A stretch of DNA of 64,000 nucleotides from an uncultured virus (IMG/VR IMGVR_UViG_3300009060_000024) (IMGVR_UViG_3300009060_000024); one strand, 5' to 3'. Positions 4,356 through 62,268 are shown, counted from the first letter of the stretch. Program-made: numbers and translations. Notes: a model not told the origin generated them from the sequence alone.

Positions 4356-5415
4356 TTATCTGATCCTCCCGTCTGAGGGCGACATCCACCAGCAGCAGAC
4401 TGAGCAGAACGACGGGTCCCTCCCATGAACGCAACGCTTCTTCGTGTCGTTCCGGACAATGGTTCGTTTCACTTCGCTCACGAGTCTCCCTCCTGCGAGG
4501 CGTCCGCAGAGGCTGAGAGTCGCTCAAACCGGATTGAACGAAGCTTGCGATATATCCAACCTTGAGGAGTGTGCATCAATGTGTAATGCTTGAACCATTC
4601 CCACTGGCAAATGAGAGCGTGTTCGCTCACCATCGACCACCCACAGTGACACGTTATCCGAAATCCGATTTCTGCCGACCTTGGGAGTCCGAAAATCCAC
4701 TCTTCCCCTCCTTGTTCAGTATCATTCGTCATCAATACTCATCAAATTTTACCCTGTGTTCGTTTCCATCTCTATCCGTCCACACCAAAACGCCCCCGCT
4801 AAGATCACCGAGACGTAGAGGTCTTTGTTCAGTTCTACCCATCTACTTCACCTCAGATTGTTTAGTTTCCGCTTCTGCTTCACTCACCAATTTCCAATCA
4901 ATAGAGTACGATACCCGATTTTTCAACATTAGTTGCTTAAGGGCTACACGTCCCCTGCGCCCAAATTCCTTAACAACCCTATCCTGCTCAACGGGTTCGT
5001 TATCTATTATAAATTGTTCAACTTCGTCCATCGGTCCATCGCCTCCTTCACGCTCATTTGTCCATATGTCCATTGTGTCCTGTAAGAGTTTCATAATCGC
5101 CGCACATCCATGCAAGGATGCGTTCAGCCTCCTCCTCGTCTTCCCGACGAAGAGATTCGGCTATGTAATGCTCTATGCTTGGATATGGTCTCTGTGTCAT
5201 TCCTACAAGGTCTTCGTTTCGTTTCATGTGTAATATCTACTCTTATCTAACGTCGTTCATCATGAACGATCCTACCATAGACAAAAAACACATGGAACAC
5301 AACACTATAGCAGCATCAACTCCATAATTAAAATACGAATACAATCCAATGATTGTTATACCGAACAGTGCAAATGTAGGACCAAATGCGTTAGGGTTAA
5401 CTATCGGTTCTGGTG

Positions 5416-5739
5416 TCATTTGTTCATCTCTGCTTCTTTGTATGTCTCAAGCCACTCTTTAGCGTCGTCATAGTTATTTCTTGCGGTGATGATTTTACCA
5501 TCGCTCCAAATATCACTGTTGACGCATTTCCAAACGTCATCTTCATTACGCTCTATACTTATTACGCATGTGTCAAACTCCACTATTTCAGCTTTTATTT
5601 GAGGAGTTTGTTTGCCTCTGTCCATGTAAGTGGCTATTGGACAGTCGTTATTAGAGCAATAATGCTGTTTTGGAGCCAGATCATGTGACACTTCTCCCTC
5701 TTCTTGATTGCACAGTGGACAATTAGTTTTAATCACCAT
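5416..5739 (-). CDS. hypothetical protein with N-terminal Zn finger
   Basis: CPLC...CSNNDC. Confidence 0.65.
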   Translation of the reverse strand: MVIKTNCPLCNQEEGEVSHDLAPKQHYCSNNDCPIATYMDRGKQTPQIKAEIVEFDTCVISIERNEDDVWKCVNSDIWSDGKIITARNNYDDAKEWLETYKEAEMNK

Positions 5740-5745
5740 TCTTAA

Positions 5746-5787
5746 TGCCCATCTCCAGAATTGAACTGGAGTTATACCAATATGGGT
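5746..5787 (-). ncRNA. mini-tRNA element t3
   Basis: CCCAU-AUUGGUAUAA-CUCCAG UUCAAUU CUGGAG-AUGGG. Confidence 0.8.
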
Positions 5788-6623
5788 CAGTCTTCGTGAG
5801 GGACAGGTGTTATTCCCTCACTTGTATTATGATCTCTGCTAATGTGTATAAGAACACGTTTTAGAGCGTCGCTTCTGTCACACTCATCATCATACATAAA
5901 GTACACTCCGCATTTGTCACATTTGTATCCATCGACCTTAAACATCGTTGTCCAAAAGATCGACTGCTACACTTTTAGACATGGATTCAATGCCATCAGC
6001 TATGTCTTCATCTCCAGCAACACTAAGGAAAACCTTAGCAGCAGTCATGCATTTGAACGCTTCCATTCTAAGATCGTATATCTCCTGATCTCTCTTTGAT
6101 TCGGTTTCGTCTTTTTCCATGTTGTTTTTGGTATGTTTGTCGTATAGGCACGTGCAGGCGTCGTGTGCCGTTTTGTGTACACAGGTACAAAGACACTTGT
6201 ATATGTCTACGCGGCCTGTGTGGGCTTGTGTGTCGGTGTATCGGGGCTTCGGGACTGCCGACCCCGGTTAGATGTAATTCCTCACGTTGTAGCTTGGACC
6301 TGTGCCAGTCAAAGCAGTGCCCAGATCGATGCCACAACCCTCGCAATTGTCAGTCAGTTCATCTCCGTGAGCGGGTTCGTTGTCAAACCCGCAAAATCTA
6401 CACTTCATTGTCATTGTGTGGTTACACTCCCCATGAAGGGTGCCATTACGTAGTGCTGATCATGAGCGAAGTTAGAATGCTCTATTGCGTCTTCCATTGC
6501 CTCTTTGTCGAGGTCATAATCTTCGTACATGAACTTTTCTTGGCAGCCTGTGCAGATGAAGCCTTTGTATTTAGACATCTTTTCTAACAGTATAACGTGT
6601 GTTGCTTTGTCATTTGTTTCTCC

Positions 6624-6676
6624 GCCTTTTAGCGTTACCCAGCCAGCACCACGAGGAGGTAAGGCTCTTGCTGGCC
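6624..6676 (-). ncRNA. HDV-like self-cleaving ribozyme (minimal) A
   Basis: P1 GGCCAGC/GCUGGCU (G1-U), P2 GCCUU/AAGGC, P3 ACC/GGU, L3 UCCUCGU, P1.1 CC/GG, J4/2 CUAA. Confidence 0.92.
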
Positions 6677-6779
6677 ATAAACTATGTTCGTTATGTGTTA
6701 GTGAGGAGTTCTATAAGCATTATTATGAACCCTGCTAACATCATCACCAATACAATTTCGATTAATATGCAACACATCT

Positions 6780-7289
6780 CTACATAGTCTCAATATTGTC
6801 TATTGAAGTTTCCCATATTGGAACAGCTGCATACCCATTGCCTCTAACGCTTACATCGAAGCGCAGGGCAAGGTACTTATCATCTCTCACATTGAAACCC
6901 TCCCTCTTTTTTGCCATCCTCTTGTACTTACGTTTGACATGATCACTCTGTAGTATGTTGGTTTTCCCAGACTCTAATCCGGGGCCAAATATCAGTCCGA
7001 ATTGGCATGGCCGAAGTTTACCTGTGACTTTGTACTTCTTTGATGTGTATTGTGGAGATTTTTCCGTAACCTCAGCCTCAAATGGAACTCCTTCTGCATC
7101 CATTTTCTTTGACTGAGTGTATGTCTTGTTAGCTCTTGGAGTTCTATCAACTGCCTTTTCAATTGACCTCGCAATCGTTTCGTATTTGTACACTTTCTCC
7201 GCTTTAGTGTACGGAGACTCCAAGAACCTTACTCTGTACTTCTTTTTTGTACCAAGCGTGTAGTACGCTATTTTATCTGACAATGACAT
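6780..7289 (-). CDS. hypothetical basic protein
   Basis: 169-aa K/R-rich ORF. Confidence 0.7.
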   Translation of the reverse strand: MSLSDKIAYYTLGTKKKYRVRFLESPYTKAEKVYKYETIARSIEKAVDRTPRANKTYTQSKKMDAEGVPFEAEVTEKSPQYTSKKYKVTGKLRPCQFGLIFGPGLESGKTNILQSDHVKRKYKRMAKKREGFNVRDDKYLALRFDVSVRGNGYAAVPIWETSIDNIETM

Positions 7290-7291
7290 TT

Positions 7292-7744
7292 TCAGTCTTC
7301 GATCATTGGTTGCATGATTTCATTCCATGTGTCTCCATCGGTGCTTACTTGGTTTATAGGAGCTCCAACTCTACCACACAACCATTTAAACGCCGCTGAC
7401 GAGTCGCTTATCTGGTACTTGTCATGCTGATACGTGTATAAATGTACCATCTCATGCAACAAAGTCATCTTTATCCGATCATCCTGTTCGCACTCTAGGT
7501 ACGATTGGGAGAATCTGAGAAAGGTATACTTCCCACCATCTCGGTAAAAAGCCTTTGCATTAGCGCGTTTTATGCGTGATGAAACTTCGATGAAGTCACA
7601 TTTAATCTCCTCGGGGAACTTTTGTTCGAGATCATCAAACCATTCGTTAAGTTTGTCTTCCCACTTTGAGTGAGGGTAAGTTCTGTACGGATGGTTCGCA
7701 CCGTTATTTTTGTCTGGAACTCCAGTTAAGTCGTGTATTCCCAT
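7292..7744 (-). CDS. SprT-like zinc metalloprotease
   Basis: TLLHEMVHLY motif preceded by a SprT-like beta region. Confidence 0.8.
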   Translation of the reverse strand: MGIHDLTGVPDKNNGANHPYRTYPHSKWEDKLNEWFDDLEQKFPEEIKCDFIEVSSRIKRANAKAFYRDGGKYTFLRFSQSYLECEQDDRIKMTLLHEMVHLYTYQHDKYQISDSSAAFKWLCGRVGAPINQVSTDGDTWNEIMQPMIED

Positions 7745-8538
7745 TATTGATTGATGATCATGGAGAAAACATCTTTTGCCTTCTCCAATTCACCGATTTG
7801 TACAAGGCCTGAAATGTAATCGAACAGTTCGTCTTCACCAGATAGTACAAGTGTTAACTCGACATGTTCAGACTCTCTGTCTTGCTGCTGTTCGTCTTCG
7901 TCGTCATCGTCTTGTTTGTTTATGATTCCTTGGTCAACAGCTTTTTCTATGATCTCGTCTGTGTCTGGCGTTTTCTTGAACCAGTTTTTGAGTTCGTCTT
8001 CGACAAATCTGTCATCTGTCATCCAACCCTTGGCCGTGATTGTACTTGAAACAGTTGAGTGACTCTCATACCCCATGTTATCAGCTATTGCTCTGTATGA
8101 CATGTCTGGGTTGTTGTAATGCCACGCGAGAGTCTCCTGCCTGTCTTCAGATAAGTCGCTGAAGGTTGTGACAGGTGGCCGTCCCATAAGAGTATAATGA
8201 ATGTCTTCATCCTGAAGGATTCTGACAACCTTGTCCTTTGACTCTCCTGAAAGATCGCAGACCTTATCAATCTCCTTGTTGGAGATGTCGGGTCCAAGAC
8301 CGTCCACGTTGCCAGACTGTATACGCTTGAACGCCTTAACGATCCTCATGTAATTGGACATTTCAGGATCGGAAGGTATGACATCTGGGTACACTCGCAT
8401 GATAAGGTCGTCTGTTGACCTCCCCCTGTGAGCAGAGTCGTTCATGCTGTTTATGTGCTGTACAATGCGCTTTCGGACACTTTTAGTCCTTCCACAAGCG
8501 CGGCACTGGTACTGTAACTCAGTCTCGTCTACTGTCAT
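7744..8538 (-). CDS. Zn-finger/HTH transcription regulator
   Basis: CRAC...H...H and SYRAIADNMGYESHSTVS HTH. Confidence 0.7.
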   Translation of the reverse strand: MTVDETELQYQCRACGRTKSVRKRIVQHINSMNDSAHRGRSTDDLIMRVYPDVIPSDPEMSNYMRIVKAFKRIQSGNVDGLGPDISNKEIDKVCDLSGESKDKVVRILQDEDIHYTLMGRPPVTTFSDLSEDRQETLAWHYNNPDMSYRAIADNMGYESHSTVSSTITAKGWMTDDRFVEDELKNWFKKTPDTDEIIEKAVDQGIINKQDDDDEDEQQQDRESEHVELTLVLSGEDELFDYISGLVQIGELEKAKDVFSMIINQ

Positions 8539-8800
8539 TGTTTTGTTCTACGGGTTCTGCTTCTGACTCTTCGTGTGTGTATGCGTTGAACAGTTTGTTT
8601 TGAGCCCCAACGCAAATGATGATAGAATCTCTTGCAAATTCTAACTCATCCCCGTATTCCTCATGTGGAAGGGTATTAATGGCACTTCTGTACTCCTCCA
8701 TCATGTTTTTATTCGACTGAATGAGTGCTATTAACTCATCCTCTGTTAGATTTACTTGATACGTCATTGTTTGATACCATCCTGTTTTCTGGATGGCTGA

Positions 8801-8860
8801 TGGCAGGTTAAGGGAGTTGAACCCATGTTATATGTCCCACCAAACTGGGTAACACCTGCT
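8801..8860 (-). ncRNA. tRNA-like element t4 lacking the anticodon arm
   Basis: GCAGGU/ACCUGC stem; D-like arm CCCA-GUUUGG-UGGG; T arm GGG-UUCAACU-CCC. Confidence 0.7.
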
Positions 8861-8890
8861 ATATAGATAACCGTTATGGCTGTGAGTTAT

Positions 8891-9247
8891 TTAATACTGA
8901 AACTCTAGAATATACTTGATCTTATCTGCTTCGTCGTAAAGCTGTCCTGTGACATCTCCTCGGATGTGGAGTTCTATCGTGTCGTCGCAACCACACTCCT
9001 TGATTTTATTCTCCCCGAAGTAACTCATCAACGCTCCATAAATCTCTAAAGGAGTGTCGCCTTGATACCGTTCAATTGCTTTGCATGACTCATCTATTTC
9101 GTCATACACAGACTGTTCGATGTCTCTGATCTCGTCCTCGCTTTCGTAGTCAGTGTCTTCAATATTTCCAATTGCTGACTTGGCTATCTCTCGACCAGCG
9201 CTGTATGCGGTATGCCGTATCTCGTTTGTGAATGGATTTTCTTTCAT
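8891..9247 (-). CDS. hypothetical acidic protein
   Basis: ORF; start MKENP follows element t5. Confidence 0.7.
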   Translation of the reverse strand: MKENPFTNEIRHTAYSAGREIAKSAIGNIEDTDYESEDEIRDIEQSVYDEIDESCKAIERYQGDTPLEIYGALMSYFGENKIKECGCDDTIELHIRGDVTGQLYDEADKIKYILEFQY

Positions 9248-9258
9248 TTTTACCCCAA

Positions 9259-9300
9259 TGACCATCCTGAGAATTGAACTCAGGCAATACCAGTATGGCT
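9259..9300 (-). ncRNA. mini-tRNA element t5
   Basis: GCCAU-ACUGGUAUUG-CCUGAG UUCAAUU CUCAGG-AUGGU. Confidence 0.8.
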
Positions 9301-9318
9301 AATTCTGTTATACCTGTG

Positions 9319-9723
9319 TCAGTAATGGCTGTGGAACGACTTGTATTCCTCAGTCATAACATCATTATACGCATCTTTGTCTATAGTATAGACAAGCCAC
9401 ACAGAAAACTCTTGCCCGTCCTTTGATTCCCTACTTTCCTCACCATACTCAACATGAGATACTCTACGAAGCTCTATCACACCATCTCGGGCGAGATGTT
9501 TTAGAACAACTGCGGGTTTCGTACTCCATGAAATGTTAGTATCAGCATCCATCCCATGTACTGTAGGGGTGAACTCATGCTTGTTTTCTTCGCGGCATCT
9601 AACATCTATCTGATGCCCAAATCCGTTTACTTCTGTTATCCCAAACTGACCATCTAGCCAGTTAGCCATCTTTTCTCCAACGCTCAATTCTTCTACCTCC
9701 ACTGTTTCTTGTTTATCTGCCAT
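9319..9723 (-). CDS. hypothetical protein
   Basis: ORF; start MADKQ follows element t6. Confidence 0.7.
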   Translation of the reverse strand: MADKQETVEVEELSVGEKMANWLDGQFGITEVNGFGHQIDVRCREENKHEFTPTVHGMDADTNISWSTKPAVVLKHLARDGVIELRRVSHVEYGEESRESKDGQEFSVWLVYTIDKDAYNDVMTEEYKSFHSHY

Positions 9724-9741
9724 TGTTGGGTTTTCGCCCGA

Positions 9742-9783
9742 TGCCCATGATAGGAATTGCACCCATTCGATTCTATTATGGGT
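9742..9783 (-). ncRNA. mini-tRNA element t6 (divergent)
   Basis: CCCAU...AUGGG UGCAAUU CCUAU-C-AUGGG. Confidence 0.6.
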
Positions 9784-9784
9784 A

Positions 9785-10132
9785 TTATGTTCTAGGTATA
9801 ACTAATTCATCGTAGAAAGACCAATCTATATCTTCCACTTCGTCATCTGCTCTCTCCTGTAGTTCTCTATGTTCACTTTCTGCCATTCCAATCGCGTCTA
9901 TTCCTCTTGTTCTAGCGTCAACAAAGAACTCCACCGCTTCTTGTAACATGGTAGAGTGGTAAACCATCTCATGTTCTTTGTCTAGTTCAATTTGTCTCTC
10001 TGTTAGTTCTTCGTCCGATTCGTCTAATTTAACTTGGTGGGTCTCTTCTGCTGTTTCGTCTGGGGGGTAGAATCTGTCCGCTGTCTTTGCTCTCTCCCAA
10101 CATAACCATTTTAGGAACTCGTGTTCGTTCAT
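9785..10132 (-). CDS. hypothetical acidic protein
   Basis: ORF; start MNEHE follows element t7 and a GCAA hairpin. Confidence 0.7.
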   Translation of the reverse strand: MNEHEFLKWLCWERAKTADRFYPPDETAEETHQVKLDESDEELTERQIELDKEHEMVYHSTMLQEAVEFFVDARTRGIDAIGMAESEHRELQERADDEVEDIDWSFYDELVIPRT

Positions 10133-10156
10133 TGTATTGCTGCCCTTGCGGGCGAG

Positions 10157-10199
10157 AGCCATATAGGGAATTGGACCCTATGCTAACACCAGTATGGCT
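10157..10199 (-). ncRNA. mini-tRNA element t7
   Basis: AGCCAU-ACUGGUGUUAGC-AUAGGG UCCAAUU CCCUAU-AUGGCU. Confidence 0.75.
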
Positions 10200-10202
10200 A
10201 AG

Positions 10203-10276
10203 TGCGACAGGTGGGATTTGAACCCACAACCTCAGCCTTATAAGGACTGCACTCTACCTAGTTGAGTTACTGTCGC
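10203..10276 (-). tRNA. tRNA-Ile(TAT)
   Basis: GCGACAG/CTGTCGC-A; CAGTC-CT TAT AA-GGCTG; T-loop TTCAAAT. Confidence 0.9.
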
Positions 10277-11210
10277 CCGAAGATTGTTATTATTCTATTC
10301 TGTCTTATTGCTGGACCCCATTATTTGAGTTGTCTTTGATGCATGGCTTACACGTCCACCAATCTTTACCGCATGACTCGCATGCATCAAATGGAACTCC
10401 GTCAAAATTTGAAACAACTGTGTTACCGCAATGGTGACACTCCCATTTATATTTAACTACATTCGACATAGCTTGCACCTCTTATTACTCCCGTCCAGTT
10501 CTCTTGCTAATGGTACACCACACTTCTCACAGTGTTCTCCCGTTAGCGTGTACTTCTGTGTTATCATTGTTCTGGATTGGTTAGTAAGCTCCTTATGTAT
10601 GACGAAGTTACATCATGACAGTTAACACTCCATGGTTCTTGCATTTGACCTCCATGTTTGTTTTGGTTGTGACTACACCTCCGTCAATCTCAGTTGATCT
10701 GACGGGGAACTCGCTTTTTATTAACTCGTTACCACAGTACGGACAGTATCTGAAGTCGCAAACTCCAGATATTTGTGTGCGTTTATCTGATGACATCTTA
10801 ACGAACCCTCGTAGCCGATTCGATAGCAATTCTCGACAGCGTGATTGATGCTGGAACGCAGAACAGAATCGAAATTGCCATCATCATCATTACAACTGAC
10901 CCGCCGCCAATAACCCTAAGGATGTCAGCGATTATTATTGAAGCTGTTATTACAGGCGCAAGCCCTCCGAAGCTTCCATCTGACATTGGGTTTATCTCCG
11001 TAAGCAGAGGGTATGATGACAGTATCAGTATGTATGCGTTAAACATCAACTGTTCTGCCAGTTGCATTGTCTATCGTGTATAGGTGTTAGTTTTGCCGTG
11101 TTTGGGGCAGATGAACTTTTCTCCCTTTCGGATGCAACGGGCCTCGCAGTTGTTACAGTATCGTGCGCTGTACTCCAGGTCGTTTCCGAACTCCTCTAGG
11201 TCTACCATTG

Positions 11211-11405
11211 TTATAGCTTGAGTTTGGTGATCGAAGCTTCGTCGTCGTCCTCTGCCATCGAAACAATGAGTTCGTACAGGCTCATTGGAAGGTCCGCCTC
11301 TCGGTAGTAGTTACCGCTTTCTGTAACTTCCCCGTGTCCTTCTTTCTCGACACGTTTTTCAGCCTCTTCCTTGTCCGTCTCGAACTCAATTCCTATGGTT
11401 GTCAT
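11211..11405 (-). CDS. hypothetical protein
   Basis: 64-aa acidic ORF directly downstream of ribozyme B. Confidence 0.7.
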   Translation of the reverse strand: MTTIGIEFETDKEEAEKRVEKEGHGEVTESGNYYREADLPMSLYELIVSMAEDDDEASITKLKL

Positions 11406-11416
11406 TCGTGCAGTTG

Positions 11417-11471
11417 ACCTCGTTCAGTGTTAACCGAGGGAAGCTCTGGGAGCTAAGAGGTTACAACCCTC
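11417..11471 (-). ncRNA. HDV-like ribozyme B (variant)
   Basis: P1 GAGGG/CCCUC, P2 ACCUC/GAGGU, P3 AGC/GCU, L3 UCCCAGA, GG, UUAACA, CUGAAC. Confidence 0.7.
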
Positions 11472-11518
11472 GTGTACGTATAATTGTCGCCTGCGCGCAC
11501 AAACGGCGCGCTACCCCT

Positions 11519-11531
11519 TAAATATAACGGC
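11519..11531 (-). promoter_or_regulatory. viral promoter-like motif GCCGTTATATTTA
   Basis: Identical 13-mer also at ~295-307 (-); similar GTCGTTATATTTAAA at ~59545-59559 (-); TATA-like. Confidence 0.55.
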
Positions 11532-11774
11532 ACTGATCGAACAGTTACACGCTGCCTTGTCGTATGTCCTCCTGGGTTAAAACCTCTCCCCCGACTCTCA
11601 CAGCATTGACATCCATGTTTTGTATGGCCGTTTTTTCTGGTCCGTTGTCCATGCTGCTGATCATTTGTTCGTATGCAACTCTTGAATTTGGCCCGTTGCC
11701 AAATCCTATCATGAGGTCCATTCCCTCATCTTCTCCATCGTTTTCGACTGTGTAAAACAGGTACTTAGACATGT

Positions 11775-12062
11775 CTACCCATCCTGATCCTCAGGAATTA
11801 CAGATGCCCACTCGCTGATTTGGAACTCCACCTCTCTCTTTCCACGGGGTGTGAGTGTGTACTCGTTAGACCTTGCATCCTTCTCGGACTTGTCAACGAG
11901 TGACATTTTGACGAGTTCGTCGAGGTTAGGATATAGCCTCCCGTTATTAATCTTGCTCTCGTAGTAATGCTCCAGTTCATCAGCAATCTCCAGTCCGTTA
12001 GGACTGTTTAGCTTTGCGATTGTTCTGATGCAGTCTCGTTGGAATCCGGTTAAGTCGTGCAT
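11775..12062 (-). CDS. PadR-family wHTH regulator (haloarchaeal type)
   Basis: MHDLTGFQRD...GRLYPNLDELV...NEYTLTPRG. Confidence 0.9.
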   Translation of the reverse strand: MHDLTGFQRDCIRTIAKLNSPNGLEIADELEHYYESKINNGRLYPNLDELVKMSLVDKSEKDARSNEYTLTPRGKREVEFQISEWASVIPEDQDG

Positions 12063-12322
12063 TAGAGGTAGTGTTCTTTTGCAGCAGCGTATCCCTTTGC
12101 GAATTGGGGAACGTACTCAAGTGAGCCATCTTCCGTGTAGTTGGCATCTTGAGCTTGCTCTACCACGGTTTCACTGTTCACATCGTACACGCTAAAAACG
12201 TGAAACACGACGTGATCTCGATACTTGAACTCGTGTTCATACACCTCCACATCGGGATTAAAAACGTCCCAGAGTGACGTGTGTACGTTGAGCATTGGTT
12301 GCTCAAATGGTGCGTCGTTCAT
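12062..12322 (-). CDS. hypothetical protein
   Basis: Start MNDAP just downstream of ribozyme C. Confidence 0.7.
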   Translation of the reverse strand: MNDAPFEQPMLNVHTSLWDVFNPDVEVYEHEFKYRDHVVFHVFSVYDVNSETVVEQAQDANYTEDGSLEYVPQFAKGYAAAKEHYL

Positions 12323-12330
12323 TGTGTGCA

Positions 12331-12386
12331 ACTGCATCTTAGTGTTAACCAGAGCCTACCACGAGGAGGTGTGCAGTGCAGGCTCC
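12331..12386 (-). ncRNA. HDV-like ribozyme C
   Basis: P1 GGAGCCU/AGGCUCU, P2 ACUGCA/UGCAGU, P3 ACC/GGU, L3 UCCUCGU, GG, UUAACA, CUAAGA. Confidence 0.9.
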
Positions 12387-12403
12387 GTAAAGAAAGAGTG
12401 TGT

Positions 12404-12661
12404 TTAATCGAACAGGTTGGAACTTTCACACAGTTTAGTGATAGAAACGTTTGACTCCTGCCTTTCATCGCATTTGGTACACCGCCTGAGTATACACTCA
12501 CCGTGATCACGTCTTACAGTACTGTAACTCCATTCGTGCCCGTGTGACGAGCATGGGGGGTGTACTACGACTTCATCTCGTAGACTGTTTTTAAGAGTGA
12601 CATCCTCTCCGCTTTGTAGTTTTTCAAGCTGTTCCTCCGAAATGGTGTATTTGTGTTTCAT
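12404..12661 (-). CDS. hypothetical Zn-binding protein
   Basis: C...GHEW...CTKC. Confidence 0.6.
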   Translation of the reverse strand: MKHKYTISEEQLEKLQSGEDVTLKNSLRDEVVVHPPCSSHGHEWSYSTVRRDHGECILRRCTKCDERQESNVSITKLCESSNLFD

Positions 12662-12677
12662 TGTTTGTTGTGGGTAT

Positions 12678-12947
12678 TCAGCAACTGAACATCGTTCTTC
12701 CCTCTGCGTCGTGGACGAACATAATGTCAGACTCGCATGCCCACTCGAAGTAACCGGGGATGTCACCTCCGATGATGGAGAACACTCTTTCCCCATGATC
12801 GTTGTCGTGATGGTACACTATCTGAGTAACCTCCTCATATGTATACCATTCTGCTTCAGCTCCCCAGTTGTTATCGAGATGTCTGATTCCTACTCGCATG
12901 TACGAATCGTTCCACGGAATGCTGTCAGGCAGTTGGTTTGCTCTCAT
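12678..12947 (-). CDS. hypothetical protein
   Basis: Start MRANQ just downstream of ribozyme D. Confidence 0.65.
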   Translation of the reverse strand: MRANQLPDSIPWNDSYMRVGIRHLDNNWGAEAEWYTYEEVTQIVYHHDNDHGERVFSIIGGDIPGYFEWACESDIMFVHDAEGRTMFSC

Positions 12948-12958
12948 GTGTGCAGTTC

Positions 12959-13010
12959 CCACGTTCAGCGAATCACTCCCAGCTCTTGAAGCTAAGTGGT
13001 ACTAAGGAGC
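12959..13010 (-). ncRNA. HDV-like ribozyme D (variant)
   Basis: P1 GCUCCU/GGGAGU (G1-U), P2 CCAC/GUGG, P3 AGC/GCU, L3 UUCAAGA with compensatory P1.1 UC/GA, UUCG, CUGAAC. Confidence 0.75.
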
Positions 13011-13030
13011 GTGTGATCGTATCGTGTGCG

Positions 13031-13564
13031 TTACATCAGTCCAGAGTCAACCAGTTCTTTAGTAGTGTGATCGTCGCAGACTCTCCTGTGATTTATCTTC
13101 ACCCAGTCTCCAGTTATTATATGGAGGTCTTCTCCACACACTGGGCAGTTTCTGTACATCGATGGCTGGTCATTTCTCCCATGCTGGTTTGCAGCTTTGT
13201 CTATCGCTCGGAGAGCGTTCCTTGGAGATTCGTTAAGTAGAGTGAACAGATCCATGTCAAGCTCTGCCTTGACAAGCCACTTTGTGTAAGCGACATCTTG
13301 ATCTGTCATCCAGTAGCGTTCGAGATTCTCCGTCTGGTACTTTTTCTTCCATCTGGAGTTCTTTTTCTTTTTCTCATAGACGACTGCAACATCGTCTTGA
13401 GCGTCGACCCCGAACACTAACTCTCCATTCTTCTCGTAAACAGATAATCTGGGTATTCGTTCTTCGGTCTTTGGGTAGGCACTCGAACTGCTTGAGGTTT
13501 TGCCACCATTCTTGACCTGCCGTTGAATATCCTCAGATTGATCTGCGAGATCTTTAATGTTCAT
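13031..13564 (-). CDS. hypothetical protein with C-terminal Zn finger
   Basis: CPVC...CDDH. Confidence 0.75.
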   Translation of the reverse strand: MNIKDLADQSEDIQRQVKNGGKTSSSSSAYPKTEERIPRLSVYEKNGELVFGVDAQDDVAVVYEKKKKNSRWKKKYQTENLERYWMTDQDVAYTKWLVKAELDMDLFTLLNESPRNALRAIDKAANQHGRNDQPSMYRNCPVCGEDLHIITGDWVKINHRRVCDDHTTKELVDSGLM

Positions 13565-13576
13565 CGTGCATCGGTT

Positions 13577-13635
13577 TGTGTCCTACGTTTGGTTGATCCA
13601 GCACCAGCTCGGGGAGCTAAGTAGGCACAGGCACC
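13577..13635 (-). ncRNA. HDV-like ribozyme E (variant)
   Basis: P1 GGUGCC/GGUGCU, P2 CCUAC/GUAGG, P3 AGC/GCU, L3 UCCCCGA, GG, CCAAAC. Confidence 0.7.
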
Positions 13636-13781
13636 GTATAATAATGGCACTAAACCCTACTGGTTTTCTGTAGGGATTAGTACCAGTCGGTATCGTATCG
13701 AATACCCACTACTTCTTCAGTCTCGTCATCGAGTTCCCAGACTGCTCTGTCAGTGGGGTGCGATCCGGTTTGGCTCATCGT

Positions 13782-14318
13782 TTACTCGTCGTCCTGTTCC
13801 TCGTCGTCGCTGTAGGCGTCCTCAGCGGCGTCGGACATCGAGCTGTCGTCGTCCTCGTCGTTGCCAGCCTGCTCTGCACGAGCCTGCTTAATGGCGTCGT
13901 TGAGGTCGGACAGCTCGAACTCGGACGCGACGACGTACTGCGCCACGTCCTGCTCGTCGAACCCGAGGAAATCCATGAGCGGAACTGCGCCCTTGGGCTC
14001 CTCGCCGTCCGGTAGCTCGGGAAGGTTGCCGATCACACCTCCGATGTAGTGCGCGAGGTAGATCTGGAAACGGGTGTACCACTCCTCGTGGTTGCCGCTC
14101 GGTGCGAGCTTCTTGAGGCTGGTACGGACAGTACCGTTTTCCTTCGTGACCTCCCACGCGAGGCTGTCGAACCACTCCCAGCCAGAGACATCCTTGTACT
14201 TGTCGTCCCCGTCGGTCGAGTAGACGTTAGCCACGAGGCTCTTGGCCTGTGAGATGTCACTGCCCTGCTGGTCGTTGTTCTGCTCTTCGCCGCCGAGTAG
14301 GTCTTTGACTCCAGACAT
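13782..14318 (-). CDS. very acidic protein with host-like high-GC codons (probably highly expressed, early)
   Basis: Almost exclusively G/C-ending codons, unlike neighbours; first gene after the structured leader. Confidence 0.85.
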   Translation of the reverse strand: MSGVKDLLGGEEQNNDQQGSDISQAKSLVANVYSTDGDDKYKDVSGWEWFDSLAWEVTKENGTVRTSLKKLAPSGNHEEWYTRFQIYLAHYIGGVIGNLPELPDGEEPKGAVPLMDFLGFDEQDVAQYVVASEFELSDLNDAIKQARAEQAGNDEDDDSSMSDAAEDAYSDDEEQDDE

Positions 14319-18797: not shown

Positions 18798-19267
18798 TGG
18801 ATACTGATAAAAAGTATCTCGATGATAAAATATATGTTGTAATGGCTGGTGAGTACCCACCGCAACGTATTATAGAGGCGAGAAAAAAGATGCACAGGGA
18901 GAGTGTAGAAGACCCAGGCAGTCCCCTTGTAGGACCCGAAGAGCTTCAGTATGAGCCTGCTTCGTCAAGTCAAAGGTTTGGATCAAACGCCACGGTAGAT
19001 GGATGGGTGACTTTCTATGATCCAAAGAAACTCAAACAGGAGAAAGCGTTTAAGCATTACACATTCCCATTCAGAGATGTGAATAAAGACGATGATCCAT
19101 GGGCAGCCTTCCCAGATAAACCCAACTTTAAACAGCATCCAATATGGAAATGGACAAATCCTAATGACGATCCTCACGAAAGCCTAACGTTATCTCCAAG
19201 CATAGGAGTTGGGCAGCCAACAGAATTTCATTGCCATATAAGAAATGGAGAGATTGATTGGATATGA
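18797..19267 (+). CDS. DUF6527-like protein
   Basis: W..N...LTLSPSI...HCHIRNGEIDW. Confidence 0.6.
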   Translation: MDTDKKYLDDKIYVVMAGEYPPQRIIEARKKMHRESVEDPGSPLVGPEELQYEPASSSQRFGSNATVDGWVTFYDPKKLKQEKAFKHYTFPFRDVNKDDDPWAAFPDKPNFKQHPIWKWTNPNDDPHESLTLSPSIGVGQPTEFHCHIRNGEIDWI

Positions 19268-20187
19268 AAGGTAAGAACGTAGTTGTTACTGGTGGTGCAG
19301 GTTTCATAGGATCGAATCTGTGCAATCATCTATGCAAAAATAACAATGTAACAGCGATTGACAATGAATATCTAGGGGACAGAGAGAATCTAGATGACGA
19401 TGTTGAGTTCATATTAGATGATGCTGTTACTGTCAGCATAGATTTCGATGTTGATATACTATTTCATCTTGCGGCTTTGTCATCGTACAAAATGCATGAA
19501 GAATCAACACGCAAAGGGGCTAGAGTTAACATAGAAGGATTCGTTAATTGTGTAGAGGAATGTTCAGATAACGGATGCGACACAGTTGTATATGCAAGCA
19601 CGTCTTCTATATATGGGAGCAGGACATCTCCGTCTAAGGAGAATATTGATGTTTCAGTAAACACAGCGTATGAAGCATCAAAGATGGCACGGGAAAAGTA
19701 TGCAGAATATTACTCTACCCACAGGGGAATGTCAATGGCCGGTATGCGTTTCTTCTCTGTGTATCAGGGCTACGGTGGCAACGAGGAGCATAAAGGAGAG
19801 TTCGCAAACATAATATCTCAGTTCGCAGATGATATATCAAAAAGCAGAAGCCCGGTGATATACGGAGATGGCACTCAGACACGCGACTTTATACACGTTG
19901 ATGACATTGTTAAAGGTCTCGAAGCTGCTGCTGACAATAGTCTTGATGGCATTTATAATCTTGGCACACAAGACACACTCTCATTCAATGAGATTGTTGA
20001 CGAGATAAACAACCAGCTCGGTAAAAACATCACTCCAGAGTATGTAGACAATCCAATACCCGAACACGTATATGTAGAGCATACGATGTCAGATACGTCC
20101 AAGATGGAGATTGATACAGAATGGGAGCCTAAGATAAGCATAGAGCAAGGGATAACTCAGGTATGCGATCACTATAAACATGGTTAA
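19264..20187 (+). CDS. NAD-dependent epimerase/dehydratase
   Basis: VTGGAGFIGS, YEASK, GDGTQTRDFIHV. Confidence 0.95.
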   Translation: MKGKNVVVTGGAGFIGSNLCNHLCKNNNVTAIDNEYLGDRENLDDDVEFILDDAVTVSIDFDVDILFHLAALSSYKMHEESTRKGARVNIEGFVNCVEECSDNGCDTVVYASTSSIYGSRTSPSKENIDVSVNTAYEASKMAREKYAEYYSTHRGMSMAGMRFFSVYQGYGGNEEHKGEFANIISQFADDISKSRSPVIYGDGTQTRDFIHVDDIVKGLEAAADNSLDGIYNLGTQDTLSFNEIVDEINNQLGKNITPEYVDNPIPEHVYVEHTMSDTSKMEIDTEWEPKISIEQGITQVCDHYKHG

Positions 20188-27591: not shown

Positions 27592-28581
27592 TCATACTCT
27601 CGGTGATATTGTCGTTCCCCATTCTATTTTGTTGAGTATAACGAGCCAAAAAAGGCTCGATGTACATATCATCGCTGCAGTTGTCCAACCTATATCAGGA
27701 ATGCATATAACAACAAATCCAAACAGAGACATTCCCTCTATACTAGACATGTTTCTCAGTCTCTTCTTCCTATTATAACTCCCTGTAAACATTAGGGAGT
27801 TTGAAGCTAGATAGCGCAATAGCATCAGTAATACAAACACAGAAAACACCATCCATCCGCCCCCAAGAGAGTGTATCGCAAGAGTTCCAAATACGAACAT
27901 TGCGAAGTCAAATGCCGTGGCCATCATCTGCGCGTGTTCAGAAACGTATATTGTTGAATCGCCTGCTTGAGAGCCTAATGCTATCAATAGGTTGGATTCG
28001 TCCTGCATTATATCCTTCATCTCTCCAGACACTGCTATCTGGTACATAACCCATACAAACACATACATACACATTATCCAAAACAGTGGTTCTATTGGAC
28101 CTCCAGAGTATAGATAGGCAGAAGCGAATACAGTTGTATGTGCTATTGAGATTGGTATTGATTTGAAGTCGGTTTGTTTGCCGTACATGTTGTACAATAA
28201 CCCTGATGCTATACCAACACATATTGCCAATACAGCCATCATAGAGCTGTGAATACTCCCTTGAGTAAACACGAATATCAGCCACACGACAGTCAATAAA
28301 AACATCCCGGTGACAAACACTCTTGCACTTTGGGGAGATAAAGTTCCTTTATTTAGAGGGTGATGCTTCTTATTCTCGTCCTTTTTGTCGTATCCTTTTG
28401 CCCAGTCCAAATAGCTATTGATCCCATAACCTGCGAGATGGTATAGCAGTCCGAACACAGCCCAGTAAAAAACATTCATGGACAGCACGCTCCCAGTAGC
28501 TATTGAAGCTCCCATTATAGCTGGAACGGTCTCTAATGGAGCTGTATGCGCTCTTGTAAGTTGAAGGTATTGTTTAATCAT
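27592..28581 (-). CDS. UbiA-family prenyltransferase 1
   Basis: YLQLTRAHT, NSYLDWAKGYD...HHPL..G, GEMKDIMQD, many TM helices. Confidence 0.88.
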   Translation of the reverse strand: MIKQYLQLTRAHTAPLETVPAIMGASIATGSVLSMNVFYWAVFGLLYHLAGYGINSYLDWAKGYDKKDENKKHHPLNKGTLSPQSARVFVTGMFLLTVVWLIFVFTQGSIHSSMMAVLAICVGIASGLLYNMYGKQTDFKSIPISIAHTTVFASAYLYSGGPIEPLFWIMCMYVFVWVMYQIAVSGEMKDIMQDESNLLIALGSQAGDSTIYVSEHAQMMATAFDFAMFVFGTLAIHSLGGGWMVFSVFVLLMLLRYLASNSLMFTGSYNRKKRLRNMSSIEGMSLFGFVVICIPDIGWTTAAMICTSSLFWLVILNKIEWGTTISPRV

Positions 28582-31687: not shown

Positions 31688-32305
31688 TTATCTACTCAAC
31701 CTTTGTTCTTTCTCAAGAAAATCATCAACGTATTGTAGTCCTTCTCTTGTATTTATTGACGCATGCACTCTTTTAACAACCCATCCAAACGGCCTCCTCA
31801 GACCTCTCTTGGCATCCACGTTTCCAGCCTTTACTGCGTTTGCTATAGCCTGAGGGTTGTTATCTGCGTCTATGAGGTTATAGCTTGAGTCAACCTGAAA
31901 CACATTATGTGCATCAGAGTTTCCAAGCTCTATTGTGTTCATTGACCCTTCGTACTGAAGCTTTCCTCCGTTATACTTCTCGTTAATATTGATACCTCTC
32001 TTATTCATTTCCCATTGGGCGGTTTTTCTTATATTGACCTTTGATCTTCTTCGTGGGTGTGCAAAGAATCTAAGTCCTTGATCTGGATAGCTTACTATGT
32101 GAACCTCTGGGGATATATTCTCTGTGTGTTCTATACCATTGAGTATAGTCAGTTCATCATCCTGTACGTTTGCCATCTTGTCATGTCCCACAAACCCAAC
32201 AGCATCATATCCAAATAGTTTGTATGCTCTAAGCATTCTTTTGCGTTTGCTACGACTGTCCCAAGATACCATGGGGTCGTGGGCGTGCAAGTCTACTTTA
32301 AGCAT
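31688..32305 (-). CDS. PHP-family phosphoesterase
   Basis: DLHAH, HD, GIE, AHP, NSDAH. Confidence 0.85.
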   Translation of the reverse strand: MLKVDLHAHDPMVSWDSRSKRKRMLRAYKLFGYDAVGFVGHDKMANVQDDELTILNGIEHTENISPEVHIVSYPDQGLRFFAHPRRRSKVNIRKTAQWEMNKRGININEKYNGGKLQYEGSMNTIELGNSDAHNVFQVDSSYNLIDADNNPQAIANAVKAGNVDAKRGLRRPFGWVVKRVHASINTREGLQYVDDFLEKEQRLSR

Positions 32306-32949
32306 TAAAACCTATCTCCATTGAGTACCTGCTGTATATACCCCCTGTCCGTTTCAGGTCCAAAAGGCATGTGTCTCTGGGACTTATACACGTAAGCCTC
32401 AGGCACAAATTTAACATCTCCTATCTTCTGCATCTTTCTACGTAACTTCATTTCTTCCTCGTAGAACATCTGAACTCGGTTTTGCTGGTTTATATCCGTA
32501 TTGAACCCACCAACACGGTCAAATGCTTCAGTTTTAAATGCTGAGTTGTTTCCTTGGAGATTTGTGAATCTTTTGTACGTGTTATTTGCAAACAGTCTGA
32601 TGTGCCACATCCATTTCTGTGGATAGCACGGTCCTTGAGTTGCAACAACATTATCATCTTCGTAGAAGGGCCTTGTTATCTCATCGGCCCACCAGCTAGG
32701 GTATATATCCCCAGCGTCGGCGCATAATATTATATCAGCGTCATAATTTTCAACTCCGTATATCCTAGCATTTAATTTCCCTCTTGGAACGTTAACGACC
32801 TCATCTGCATAGCTACGTGCTATATCTCTTGTCCCATCATCAGAGTCCGAGTCAAGGACTATAGTCTCTCCTTGACCCTCAAGAGATTTTAGAGTGTCCT
32901 CTATGTAGTTTGCCTCATCTAATGTGCATATGTGTATTTGTTCTTTCAT
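32305..32949 (-). CDS. GT2 glycosyltransferase
   Basis: DSDSDDGT, ADAG, GNNSAF...VGGF. Confidence 0.88.
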   Translation of the reverse strand: MKEQIHICTLDEANYIEDTLKSLEGQGETIVLDSDSDDGTRDIARSYADEVVNVPRGKLNARIYGVENYDADIILCADAGDIYPSWWADEITRPFYEDDNVVATQGPCYPQKWMWHIRLFANNTYKRFTNLQGNNSAFKTEAFDRVGGFNTDINQQNRVQMFYEEEMKLRRKMQKIGDVKFVPEAYVYKSQRHMPFGPETDRGYIQQVLNGDRF

Positions 32950-38017: not shown

Positions 38018-38959
38018 CTACCGGATGAAATACTCTGTTAAGAAAGGAATCACAAATGAAAGCATCACTCCGGCATAGTACCACATCCAGCTCGGGTGGT
38101 TTCCAGTTCGGCTATCTATCTTGTGAGGATTAACAGCCATGTGGTATAGCATAAATAGGCAGAATGGTATTATAAGTAACATGGAAGATAAGTCTCTGGG
38201 TACAATGTTCATTGAAATACCGAAAGACATAACAGCTATCATCATGAACATCGACCCAGAAGCTATTACAGATACTCCTTTAACACCGTACATTACCACA
38301 AATGTCTTTATATTATGAGATGCGTCCACCTCTCTGTCAATTATATCTGCCGAGTTTTGGAAACCTAGGACGTAGAAGAACATGAACAGCCCCAGAGTCC
38401 ACGGCAATGCACTATACACATTTCCATACGCTGACCAAACTACTGGAAAGCTCAACAGTCCTCTGCTTACAGCTTGCCATGGTATACTTATCCTTCTCTC
38501 TTTAGCTCTTATAGGACCAAGATTATAAAACACGCCGAAGAATATTGTGACAGTCATCATCATACCAAACTGAGTGTCTACCATGTAAGCTCTACCAAGA
38601 GATATTAGTATCAGTATCCAAGCCAGCGTTCTAGCCTCGTCAACTGACACAAGCCCGGACGGTATCGGCCTGTTTCTTTTATGCTCTGTTTTGGCATCCA
38701 TATCAGCATCTTCTGCCATGTTAAGGGTTTGAGATGCTCCATGTGCAAGAGCCACTGTTACAGTTGCAAACACAACATTTGCCCAATTTGAAATTATACC
38801 ATGTATATTGTTATGATAGTAGAAAAAGAATAGAGATCCAAACAGGAACGCTACAGACATTCCTACCGTACTTGCTGGCTTTGTAAGGTCTATATACGCT
38901 CTTATTCTCTCTGGTACAATGCTTGTTCTACTGTAACTCTCCCCTAGACCCCATTTCAT
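38018..38959 (-). CDS. UbiA-family prenyltransferase 2
   Basis: YIDLTKP, NMAEDADMD...RNRPIPSG, DIIDREVD. Confidence 0.92.
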   Translation of the reverse strand: MKWGLGESYSRTSIVPERIRAYIDLTKPASTVGMSVAFLFGSLFFFYYHNNIHGIISNWANVVFATVTVALAHGASQTLNMAEDADMDAKTEHKRNRPIPSGLVSVDEARTLAWILILISLGRAYMVDTQFGMMMTVTIFFGVFYNLGPIRAKERRISIPWQAVSRGLLSFPVVWSAYGNVYSALPWTLGLFMFFYVLGFQNSADIIDREVDASHNIKTFVVMYGVKGVSVIASGSMFMMIAVMSFGISMNIVPRDLSSMLLIIPFCLFMLYHMAVNPHKIDSRTGNHPSWMWYYAGVMLSFVIPFLTEYFIR

Positions 38960-57298: not shown

Positions 57299-58570
57299 AT
57301 GCGCATTCTCTGGCACAGTGCCGCACCTTGGGTCAACACTGGATATGGACATTGCACAAGAGAGATCGTCACGAGACTTCAGAAAAGAGGACACGATATT
57401 GCTGTCAAGCCACTTGGAGCTGTTACTAAAGGACCGTTCTGGTGGCATGGTGAGGAATCACCAGTAGAATTAGATGAGCCTATAAAGATTTATGATGCGG
57501 GTCAGGCATTTGGTTTGGATACCACCACTGACAACTTCTCAGATTTTAACGCTGATCTTTACTTCACTCATTTCGATACATGGATTGGGCCAGCTCGTAA
57601 TACAATCCCCAACATGGGAATACCATATGCGAGCTATGTGATCGTTGATCACTACCCAGTTCCAAATGCTGTTGTGGAGCAAGTCCAAAACGCACAAAGA
57701 GTAGTCGCAATGTCTCAATATGGCAAGGCGGCTCTGAGAGAGAAAGGAACACCATCGAGAACTATAACTCACGGCATAGACCCCGATGTTCAAAAGCCAT
57801 TAACGGGCGATGACAAACCATCTGTCATACACACTCAAGACGAATCAGGTGAGATTAAGGACGTAGACCTCGATGAAACATTCGTTGTTGGTATGGTAGC
57901 AGCTAACCATGGAGACAGGAAACATATACCTGGTCACATGGAGGCATTTAAAATGGTGCTGAGAGAGATTGATGAAGATGCCATAATGTACATCCATACA
58001 GATGCCAACCCGAACGAAGGGCATAACCTAAATGAGGTGAGGAAAGAGATAGGTCTTCCTCAAGAGAATGTAGTGTGGCCCAGTAATGAAATGTACCATG
58101 GAATATCTGACTCAATGCTTAACAAATGGTACAATTCGTTCGACGTGTTCGTAAATTGTTCGTATGGAGAATCGTGGGGCATGTGCGTCACAGAAGCCAT
58201 GGCTGCTGGACTGCCAGTGATTGTATCTAACTTCAGTTCAATGCCAGAGCAGATAACTAACGACGACAATAATCTAGAAGATATTACAATCACAGGACCT
58301 AGAACATATGGGGGCATAAAAGAGGCTGATCACGGCATAGCTGTCGATCCTGTCGTCGGAGTGTTCAGAGCAAGAGTTTCTGCAAAGCAGTTCATAGTAC
58401 ATCCCAAGGACATAAAGGATGCCATAATGTACTATTACAACAACCCAGACATTGCACATGAGCATGGCGAAAAGGCTAGGGAATACGCTGTCAACAATTA
58501 CACATGGGAGGATCATGTAGTGCCAAAATTCGATAAGATGTTCAGTGATATGGAGGCTGAATTACAATGA
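57299..58570 (+). CDS. GT4 (GT-B) glycosyltransferase
   Basis: TGYG, HGID, ESWGMCVTEAMAAGLPVI. Confidence 0.92.
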   Translation: MRILWHSAAPWVNTGYGHCTREIVTRLQKRGHDIAVKPLGAVTKGPFWWHGEESPVELDEPIKIYDAGQAFGLDTTTDNFSDFNADLYFTHFDTWIGPARNTIPNMGIPYASYVIVDHYPVPNAVVEQVQNAQRVVAMSQYGKAALREKGTPSRTITHGIDPDVQKPLTGDDKPSVIHTQDESGEIKDVDLDETFVVGMVAANHGDRKHIPGHMEAFKMVLREIDEDAIMYIHTDANPNEGHNLNEVRKEIGLPQENVVWPSNEMYHGISDSMLNKWYNSFDVFVNCSYGESWGMCVTEAMAAGLPVIVSNFSSMPEQITNDDNNLEDITITGPRTYGGIKEADHGIAVDPVVGVFRARVSAKQFIVHPKDIKDAIMYYYNNPDIAHEHGEKAREYAVNNYTWEDHVVPKFDKMFSDMEAELQ

Positions 58571-61627: not shown

Positions 61628-61763
61628 AAATGGCTGCTTAGGGCAGCCAATCCGACTACGGGTGCGTATTGTGACGATCATATCTCAACCCTCACTGACC
61701 AGGCAAGGGTGCATCTGTTCCTTGCTCTCCCCTCTATTTAATATTGCGCCGAGGAGGCGCAAG

Positions 61764-62155: not shown

Positions 62156-62268
62156 TGGGAGTGGGAGGGATCGAACCCCCGTCACAGATGTCATGATTGA
62201 GTTAGCGACATATGGCAATTTTGTTTGATGCTCACCATTACTGTGACATTCCATTAAATTACACTCCC
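62156..62268 (-). ncRNA. atypical tRNA-like RNA (~113 nt)
   Basis: Acceptor GGGAGTG/CACTCCC-A and T arm GGGGG-TTCGATC-CCTCC, but the anticodon arm is replaced by a branched insert. Confidence 0.7.

Follow-up and report, generated by a model that had tools for sequence, protein, structure and literature searches.

Minimal HDV-like ribozymes predicted between protein genes of a haloarchaeal mobile element, and their possible part in setting the 5' ends of mRNAs

Why would self-cleaving RNAs lie between protein genes, a few nucleotides ahead of start codons, in DNA that carries its own tRNA genes? The question is raised by a stretch of 64,000 nucleotides (nt) from an uncultured virus (IMG/VR IMGVR_UViG_3300009060_000024), the whole of which is called the window below. 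On its minus strand a first-pass annotation had described two folds like that of the hepatitis delta virus (HDV) ribozyme and had taken them for mRNA 5' leaders. Our comparison is with the theta ribozymes, which are minimal HDV-like ribozymes carried by gut Caudoviricetes (Kienbeck et al. 2024, PMC10879173). We consider it probable, at roughly two chances in three, that ribozymes of the theta format constitutively cut a polycistronic mRNA in a haloarchaeal gene array and so set the 5' end of the downstream message. Three sites are concerned, the third of which is a divergent candidate that the first-pass annotation did not contain:

6624-6676, minus strand: Rz1, predicted minimal HDV-like ribozyme (direct sequence reading, sub-threshold Rfam matches, descriptor matches, and an orthologue with a compensatory P1 change in the related metagenome locus L118)
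12331-12386, minus strand: Rz2, predicted minimal HDV-like ribozyme (direct sequence reading, a sub-threshold Rfam match, the strict descriptor, and an L118 orthologue)
13582-13635, minus strand: Rz3, divergent HDV-like candidate (strict descriptor, 0 matches in 1000 shuffles)

Every item that had been described for the two minus-strand folds proved correct, with G1 at 6676 and 12386. Rz1 runs from G6676 to C6624, with predicted cleavage 5' of G6676 and C6632 as the presumed catalytic cytosine. Its P1 (GGCCAGC/GCUGGCU) comprises 7 base pairs (bp), the first of which is a G1-U wobble, and its P2 (GCCUU/AAGGC) comprises 5 bp. P3 is ACC/GGU and L3 is UCCUCGU; the CC of L3 pairs with the GG after P1 to give P1.1. 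At the place where larger family members carry P4, Rz1 has 6 unpaired nt, and J4/2 reads CUAA. Rz2 runs from G12386 to U12331, with predicted cleavage 5' of G12386 and C12342 as catalytic cytosine. P1 is GGAGCCU/AGGCUCU and P2 is ACUGCA/UGCAGU (6 bp). P3, L3 and P1.1 are identical to those of Rz1, L4 has 6 nt and J4/2 reads CUAAG. An in-frame AUG (12337-12335) lies within the 3' strand of P2 of Rz2.

The nested double-pseudoknot order P1-(J1/2)-P2-P3-L3-P3'-P1'-P1.1-(P4)-J4/2-P2' was found in Rz1, Rz2 and both L118 orthologues. Paired by hand, P2 measures 5, 6, 4 and 6 bp in Rz1, Rz2, L118 Rz1 and L118 Rz2, respectively. The G1-U wobble at the base of P1 is present in all four sequences and also in Rz3. 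The catalytic C is the first nucleotide of J4/2 at each window site (C6632, C12342 and C13592). The hallmark of L3, a U followed by the CC that pairs with GG as P1.1 and by CG, takes the form UCCUCGU in Rz1 and Rz2 and UCCCCGU in L118 Rz2. Judged by sequence and predicted pairing, Rz1 and Rz2 are real members of the minimal HDV-like class and appear to follow the published theta format.

The fold was searched for with Rfam models and with descriptors. At Rfam gathering thresholds the whole window returned tRNAs alone, and none of the HDV families passed. At permissive thresholds, HDV-family models (RF00094, RF01787 and RF02682 were compared) matched only the Rz1 and Rz2 sites in the 64 kb. Rz1 scored 40.6 bits with HDV_ribozyme (gathering 50) and 31.4 bits with drz-agam-1 (gathering 37), and Rz2 scored 30.5 bits with HDV-F-prausnitzii (gathering 44). 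Descriptors were built on the theta domain format, which was reconstructed from the sequences in supplementary file 6 of PMC10879173. A first, over-strict version found Rz1 and missed Rz2. A relaxed version was unspecific, with 0.48 matches per shuffled window and 2-3 matches in each control in which the catalytic C had been replaced. The strict descriptor, in which the conserved letters of L3 and J4/2 are fixed, matched exactly three sites in the window, namely Rz1, Rz2 and Rz3, all on the minus strand. No match was obtained in 1000 dinucleotide-preserving shuffles, or with A, G or U in place of the catalytic C. This descriptor was written after Rz3 had been seen, and its significance for Rz3 is somewhat flattered. 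Under the strict descriptor Rz2 fits the theta format, as rebuilt from the supplementary sequences, with one mismatch in P2, and Rz1 with two.

Conservation was followed with a degenerate pattern in metagenome contigs. The scan gave 20 loci, among them L118, which is syntenic with window positions 13093-3868 and has kept both Rz1 and Rz2. Rz2 of L118 is identical at 53 of 56 positions. Identity in the flanking DNA ranges from 52% to 82%, with 52% over the last 90 nt of the upstream gene, 58% in the spacer and 81% in the downstream coding sequence. Rz2 is the best-conserved stretch of its neighbourhood. All three changes in it fall at unpaired positions (J1/2, L3 position 4 and J4/2 position 2), and these positions are variable among published theta ribozymes too (PMC10879173, supplementary file 6). 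In Rz1 of L118 the core from P3 to J4/2 is identical at 31 of 32 positions. At the one position where the core differs, the 3' strand of P1 has A in place of G, and the 5' strand correspondingly has U in place of C, a compensatory exchange of a C-G for a U-A pair. P2 of this ribozyme has 4 bp, with a register shift of one base, and it fails the strict descriptor because of these 4 bp. Contigs of the L118-like variant are also present in four DNA runs.

The first-pass annotation had taken the differences between the two window ribozymes as covariation, and the alignment of Rz1, Rz2 and the two L118 orthologues bears this out. The P1 and P2 sequences of Rz1 and Rz2 are unrelated, yet the cells of P1, P3 and P1.1 pair in 48 of 48 cases, and five of the seven P1 pairs change on both sides. 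When the partners of P1, P3 and P1.1 were slid against each other, pairing fell to 50% or less. Taken together, the comparison indicates that the ribozymes are conserved under selection in a haloarchaeal element.

We then turn to the surroundings of the ribozymes. Rz1, Rz2 and Rz3 all lie between open reading frames (ORFs) of a long minus-strand array, from about 14.4 to 5.2 kb, which encodes small, mostly acidic proteins. The ORFs flanking the ribozymes are conserved as coding sequence (tblastx to L118). With the two in L118, five ribozymes are available, and all are on the gene strand between co-directional protein genes. The distance from the upstream stop codon to G1 ranges from 17 to 103 nt and is exactly 17 nt in three of the five, namely Rz2 and both L118 ribozymes. 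From the end of the ribozyme to the start codon the range is 8-17 nt, with individual distances to the AUG of 8, 10-11 and 17 nt. Around Rz2 and Rz1 the features are as follows, with protein lengths in amino acids (aa):

12404-12796, minus strand: upstream gene of Rz2 (longest ORF; conserved coding part about 12416-12649; ORF list and tblastx to L118)
12387-12403, minus strand: pyrimidine-rich spacer of 17 nt, from the stop codon of the upstream gene (12404-12406) to G1 of Rz2
12062-12322, minus strand: downstream gene of Rz2, 86 aa, acidic (AUG 8 nt past Rz2; 79% protein identity to L118)
6780-7289, minus strand: basic ORF of 169 aa upstream of Rz1 (stop 103 nt before G1; absent from L118)
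6584-6613, minus strand: relic ORF of nine codons (start 10 nt past Rz1, behind GGAG)
6411-6578, minus strand: gene of 55 aa, the first intact ORF past Rz1 (AUG 45 nt past Rz1; 83% tblastx identity to L118)

In L118, Rz1 follows a SprT-like gene after 17 nt, and the 169-aa gene and the 103-nt spacer of the window are absent. Rz1 and the 'GGAG...AAACAAAUG' initiation region stay together in the window and in L118, with a different gene upstream. A constant downstream initiation region with a changed upstream partner would fit a '5' leader' module. The name of mRNA 5' leaders is apt in so far as the ribozymes end 8-17 nt before a start codon and Rz1 keeps its downstream region. Rz2 and both L118 sites, however, lie only 17 nt past a conserved upstream stop codon, and this spacing points to intercistronic sites in an operon-like array rather than to leaders of their own transcripts. 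The five ribozymes all lie clear of tRNA and tRNA-like matches (ARAGORN, Rfam).

The nine-codon ORF past Rz1 corresponds to the start of a 62-aa acidic CxxC zinc-finger-like ORF in L118 (L118:4101-4290); in the window it ends 5 nt ahead of the AUG of the next gene. At L118:4003-4112 the 3' half of Rz1 (from L3 onward), the leader and the AUG form a tandem duplication of 55 nt. The second copy is without the GG of P1.1. The two AUGs share a reading frame, and starting at the first would lengthen the downstream 62-aa ORF by 17 residues.

HDV-like ribozymes cleave 5' of G1 and require no upstream sequence, and the cytosine of J4/2 acts in catalysis. After cleavage the upstream RNA ends in a 2',3'-cyclic phosphate, and the ribozyme, still part of the downstream RNA, begins with a 5'-OH. 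For the window, the following course is proposed. The gene array would be transcribed as a polycistronic RNA, and each ribozyme would fold during synthesis and cut itself 5' of G1. The upstream message would then end a few nt past its stop codon, and the downstream message would start with the whole compact fold of the ribozyme, which ends 8-17 nt short of the start codon. What is selected for is most likely that neighbouring cistrons are uncoupled and that the downstream mRNA gets a defined, structured 5' end independent of the upstream context. The ribozyme would serve here as a natural 'insulator' or 5'-end cassette and not in tRNA 3' processing.

Several points weigh against this course of events. 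Cleavage and co-transcription of the array are predicted here, and a benefit to the element is what we infer. Every Rfam HDV score is below its gathering threshold, since P4, which the models expect, is missing, as seen in the alignments. Pseudoknot-free folding energies equal those of the shuffles (z about 0), with P1 of Rz1 and Rz2 recovered; such a value is expected because the RNAs are short and pseudoknotted, and it was not counted as support. P2 of Rz1 is short, with 5 bp in the window and 4 bp in L118. The conservation is seen in a single relative lineage, the covariation between orthologues comes from one pair, and the covariation of P1 is mostly between paralogues. The 103-nt spacer upstream of Rz1 contains a TATA-like TTATAG about 37 nt before G1, noticed by eye, and Rz1 in the window could lie in a primary 5' untranslated region (UTR), not between cistrons. 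Rz3 is possibly inactive, in view of its lack of Rfam matches, a competing hairpin and a core that does not recur. TATA candidates found by eye were not taken as evidence, and a scan for bacterial-type promoters and terminators gave no more than chance, with a model that is bacterial, not archaeal.

Other explanations were weighed against the same evidence. The one that survives best is that of the first-pass annotation, in which the 5'-OH and the nested double pseudoknot form a protective cap and shield the mRNA from 5'-end-dependent decay, for example by an archaeal RNase J-type 5'-3' exonuclease. By the chemistry of the family, the whole ribozyme remains on the downstream product. At each of the three window sites it ends 8-17 nt ahead of a start codon, and Rz1 has the same downstream initiation region in the window and in L118 but not the same upstream gene. 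For R2 and L1Tc, too, the HDV-like ribozymes at the mRNA 5' ends are thought to support the expression of uncapped RNA (PMC6765202). A cap leaves the constant distance of 17 nt to the upstream stop codon unexplained. Moreover, in Bacillus RNase J1 preferentially attacks the 5'-OH RNA that glmS ribozyme cleavage leaves, and a 5'-OH alone is therefore not protective. We regard the cap as a tentative explanation only; protection is one possible pay-off of the cutting arrangement.

The constant distance of 17 nt is better accommodated if the product that matters is the upstream one. The ribozyme would then replace a terminator or processing site and leave the upstream mRNA with a 2',3'-cyclic phosphate 17 nt past its stop codon, similar to the trimming of tRNA 3' trailers by theta ribozymes. 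That three of the five distances are exactly 17 nt, though the spacer sequences are only 58% identical, speaks for such a role. Elsewhere, ribozymes of the same sequence subtype adjoin the 3' end of a tRNA in 7 of 14 cases (four of four in bacterial metagenome-assembled genomes (MAGs), three of ten in IMG/VR). The bacterial-type scan also detected no terminator-like gene-strand hairpins beside the ribozymes, which is a weak indication. Within the window, however, Rz1 lies 103 nt and Rz3 41 nt past the upstream stop codon, and at Rz1 it is the downstream region that is kept between the window and L118, with a different upstream gene. Overall, a role in making 3' ends appears rather unlikely.

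A conditional switch is improbable. Here cleavage, or a fold in P2 of Rz2 that hides the AUG, would respond to intracellular salt or Mg2+ and tune downstream expression. The core is canonical, and with P4 so reduced there is no space for a sensor domain. The host is hypersaline, an in-frame AUG is present inside the 3' strand of P2 of Rz2, and the 3' arm of a hairpin upstream of Rz3 could pair with P2a. A conserved alternative pairing is hypothetical only. A response to salt has been proposed for hammerhead variants from a saltern (PMC3088659).

The chemistry of the ends allows one further product. If the ribozymes act in series on one transcript, the segments 13635-12387 and 12386-6677 would carry both a 5'-OH and a 2',3'-cyclic phosphate. 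Such ends are the substrates of the archaeal RNA ligase RtcB. It is conceivable, though in our view very unlikely, that the element in this way produces circular mRNAs resistant to exonucleases, with a ribozyme fold just ahead of the first start codon in each. If true, such molecules would be the natural equivalent of engineered circular RNA systems with flanking ribozymes. Lastly, that the motifs have no present function, being either chance look-alikes or remnants, now in decay, of tRNA-linked theta ribozymes that came in with other DNA, is hardly credible: the weak P2 of Rz1, the partial tandem duplicate of 55 nt of its 3' half in L118, the divergence of Rz3 and the gene directly past Rz1 that is cut down to nine codons in the window would suit decay, but chance is excluded by the shuffles and the catalytic-C controls, no stretch of its neighbourhood is better conserved than Rz2, and the P1 change of Rz1 is compensated.

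The preferred reading, constitutive cutting between cistrons, can be compared with known ribozymes. Theta ribozymes have a common domain order and common lengths, with P1 of 6-7, J1/2 of 1-4, P2 of 7 and P3 of 3, L3 as U-CC-NCG-Y, P1.1 as GG, L4 of 5-8 and J4/2 as C-N-R-A(N), and part of them have been verified by assay (PMC10879173). The L4 and J4/2 variants GTAACG with CTAA and TTAACA with CTAAC are common to Rz1/Rz2 and to part 1 of supplementary file 6 of that work. In predicted structure, Rz1 and Rz2 appear to be ordinary minimal HDV-like or theta members. Their exact sequences are absent from supplementary file 6, in which the P1 sequence GGCCAGC occurs in four entries with other helices different, and GGAGCCT in none. 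The two groups differ in placement. In the tRNA-associated subgroup, from which the theta ribozymes have their name, the cleavage site lies within 5 nt of a tRNA 3' end, and none of the five ribozymes here is so placed; the count of tRNA-linked copies is 0 of 5, despite 9-10 tRNA genes in the window. Of 1281 published theta occurrences, 526 lack an associated tRNA, and 96% of these are in sense orientation to the nearest ORF, with no role assigned (PMC10879173). Most of these isolated copies are more than 200 nt from any ORF, whereas those of the window occupy short spacers and end 8-17 nt ahead of a start codon.

The hosts differ as well. Theta ribozymes were described from Caudoviricetes phages of gut Bacteroidota or Bacillota (PMC10879173), whereas the window, from a metagenome labelled as soil, carries haloarchaeal markers and no tailed-virus hallmark genes. 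Archaea are unmentioned in the main text and the searchable supplements of PMC10879173, and we found no report of an HDV-like ribozyme for archaea or their viruses in the open-access literature. In prokaryote genomes the subtype pattern gave three loci, all in Bacilli-type MAGs and none in archaea.

A ribozyme of another class has been described in haloarchaeal viruses. The hammerhead of the haloviruses HF1 and HF2 (HHphage; Perreault et al. 2011) lies 13 nt before the start codon of a helicase, and its cleavage site is no more than 3 nt away from the mapped 5' end of an early polycistronic transcript (PMC3088659). As in the window, a self-cleaving ribozyme of a haloarchaeal virus stands close before a start codon, in that case at the head of a polycistronic message. 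It differs in being a hammerhead with a variant core, and in being a single copy at the transcript start, compared with several copies between cistrons here. By analogy, we take it as the closest functional analogue, to which the window ribozymes would be the HDV-like counterpart. Together, the two cases suggest that viruses of haloarchaea repeatedly take self-cleaving RNAs into service to fix the ends of mRNAs.

Also comparable are the HDV-like ribozymes that R2 and L1Tc carry in their 5' UTRs, and drz-Fpra-1, which lies upstream of glmM in F. prausnitzii, in that the downstream RNA is released from a co-transcript with the ribozyme remaining as its 5' leader (PMC6765202). In the alignment, Rz2 and the Rfam model from F. 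prausnitzii have the 'CAC-ACC ... CUAAGAUG' arrangement of P2 and J4/2 in common. These ribozymes differ by full-size P4 domains and by their location in eukaryotic retroelements or a bacterial chromosome, and internal ribosome entry site-like and protein-binding roles have been proposed for them (PMC6765202).

The first-pass annotation had stressed that the ribozymes precede protein genes instead of tRNA-linked sites. That no tRNA adjoins them holds, but the placement is not new (PMC10879173, PMC6765202, PMC3088659), and the arrangement as such, with theta ribozymes in sense orientation away from tRNAs and HDV-like ribozymes as 5' leaders, is already known in principle. What is new here is that the host is haloarchaeal, that the ribozymes follow one another in series, fitted tightly between cistrons next to start codons, and that nearby tRNAs are disregarded. 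The ribozymes of the window speak to the role of the many theta copies that are not linked to tRNAs, and offer a simple system for testing what isolated theta ribozymes do.

The haloarchaeal setting, which had only been implied before, agrees with the gene content. A PCNA-type sliding clamp was found (NF002222, E 2e-16, below the curated cut-off), and the integrase has the archaeal XerA model as its best match. The proteome is acidic, with 13.2% aspartate plus glutamate compared with 9.7% lysine plus arginine. The PadR-like protein beside Rz2 has 14 homologues on record in the phage collection, every one of them from a haloarchaeal virus. These genes mark the element as a haloarchaeal mobile element. 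No capsid, portal or terminase family was detected in the window, and for this reason it may be an unusual virus or a plasmid. The element also carries two UbiA-type prenyltransferases, two glycosyltransferases and a nucleotide-sugar epimerase (27592-28581, 38018-38959, 32305-32949, 57299-58570 and 19258-20187). Such a load of membrane and glycan genes together with no recognisable capsid genes is unusual for a haloarchaeal mobile element.

Relatives are few. The phage collection held no DNA or protein match for 5000-14000 and none for the subtilase. IMG/VR gave no relatives of the 169-aa protein, the 86-aa protein or the 86-aa alignment, and no match to the exact Rz1 or Rz2 cores. A 662-aa protein had one other cluster among 5.8 billion proteins. 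The strict descriptor found nothing in the three cultured haloviruses scanned, HHTV-2 (first 50 kb), BJ1 and Humcor1. BLAST of the ribozymes against phages gave chance matches only; one match inside a capsid-assembly gene of a Methanomassiliicoccales virus was rejected, being without P3.

Rz3 runs from G13635 to G13582 in the following surroundings:

13677-13778, minus strand: ORF of 33 aa upstream of Rz3 (stop 41 nt before G1; ORF list)
13031-13564, minus strand: gene of 177 aa downstream of Rz3 (AUG 17 nt past Rz3)

Its P1 has 6 bp with three G-U pairs, and its P2 pairs at six of seven positions. P3 is AGC/GCU, L3 is UCCCCGA, P1.1 is formed with GG, L4 has 5 nt and J4/2 is CCAA with C13592. 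Rz3 had no match to any Rfam HDV model. In its minimum-energy fold the final A of L3 extends P3, which results in a competing hairpin of 5 bp that would trap the cytosines of P1.1. The P3-L3 core pattern gave 119 matches in IMG/VR; only one of these had a P1 complement, and this one was without P2 and unconvincing. The Rz3 core is not a recurrent HDV-like variant in IMG/VR. Rz3 is probably a diverged relative of Rz1 and Rz2 whose activity is doubtful. Between the 33-aa ORF and Rz3, a hairpin CCCUAC...GUAGGG followed by UUU lies at 13655-13685 (minus strand). Its 3' arm is also complementary to the 5' strand of Rz3 P2, and this alternative pairing could block the ribozyme.

The tRNA genes of the window number 9 by ARAGORN or 10 by Rfam, and none of them has an adjoining ribozyme (Rfam, strict descriptor). 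One is inside the same gene array as the ribozymes:

10202-10276, minus strand: tRNA-Ile(UAU), no adjoining ribozyme

A CCTCCTCGGCG match just past tRNA-Asn (61747-61757) was rejected, as it is a plain hairpin and not a ribozyme. This hairpin, directly past the tRNA gene at 61740-61762 (minus strand), has 7 bp (UUGCGCC-UCCUC-GGCGCAA), and its loop resembles L3 of HDV. On the Bacilli-type MAG contigs (L259-L261) all four ribozymes of the same subtype adjoin tRNA-Gln or tRNA-Asn, and L261 has two such tRNA-ribozyme units 460 nt apart. In the window, a 113-nt Rfam tRNA match at 62156-62268 (minus strand) scored 30.4 bits, just above threshold. Its acceptor stem and T arm are good, and its anticodon region holds some 40 additional nt; it was not called by ARAGORN even with intron search, and may be an intron-bearing or degenerate tRNA.

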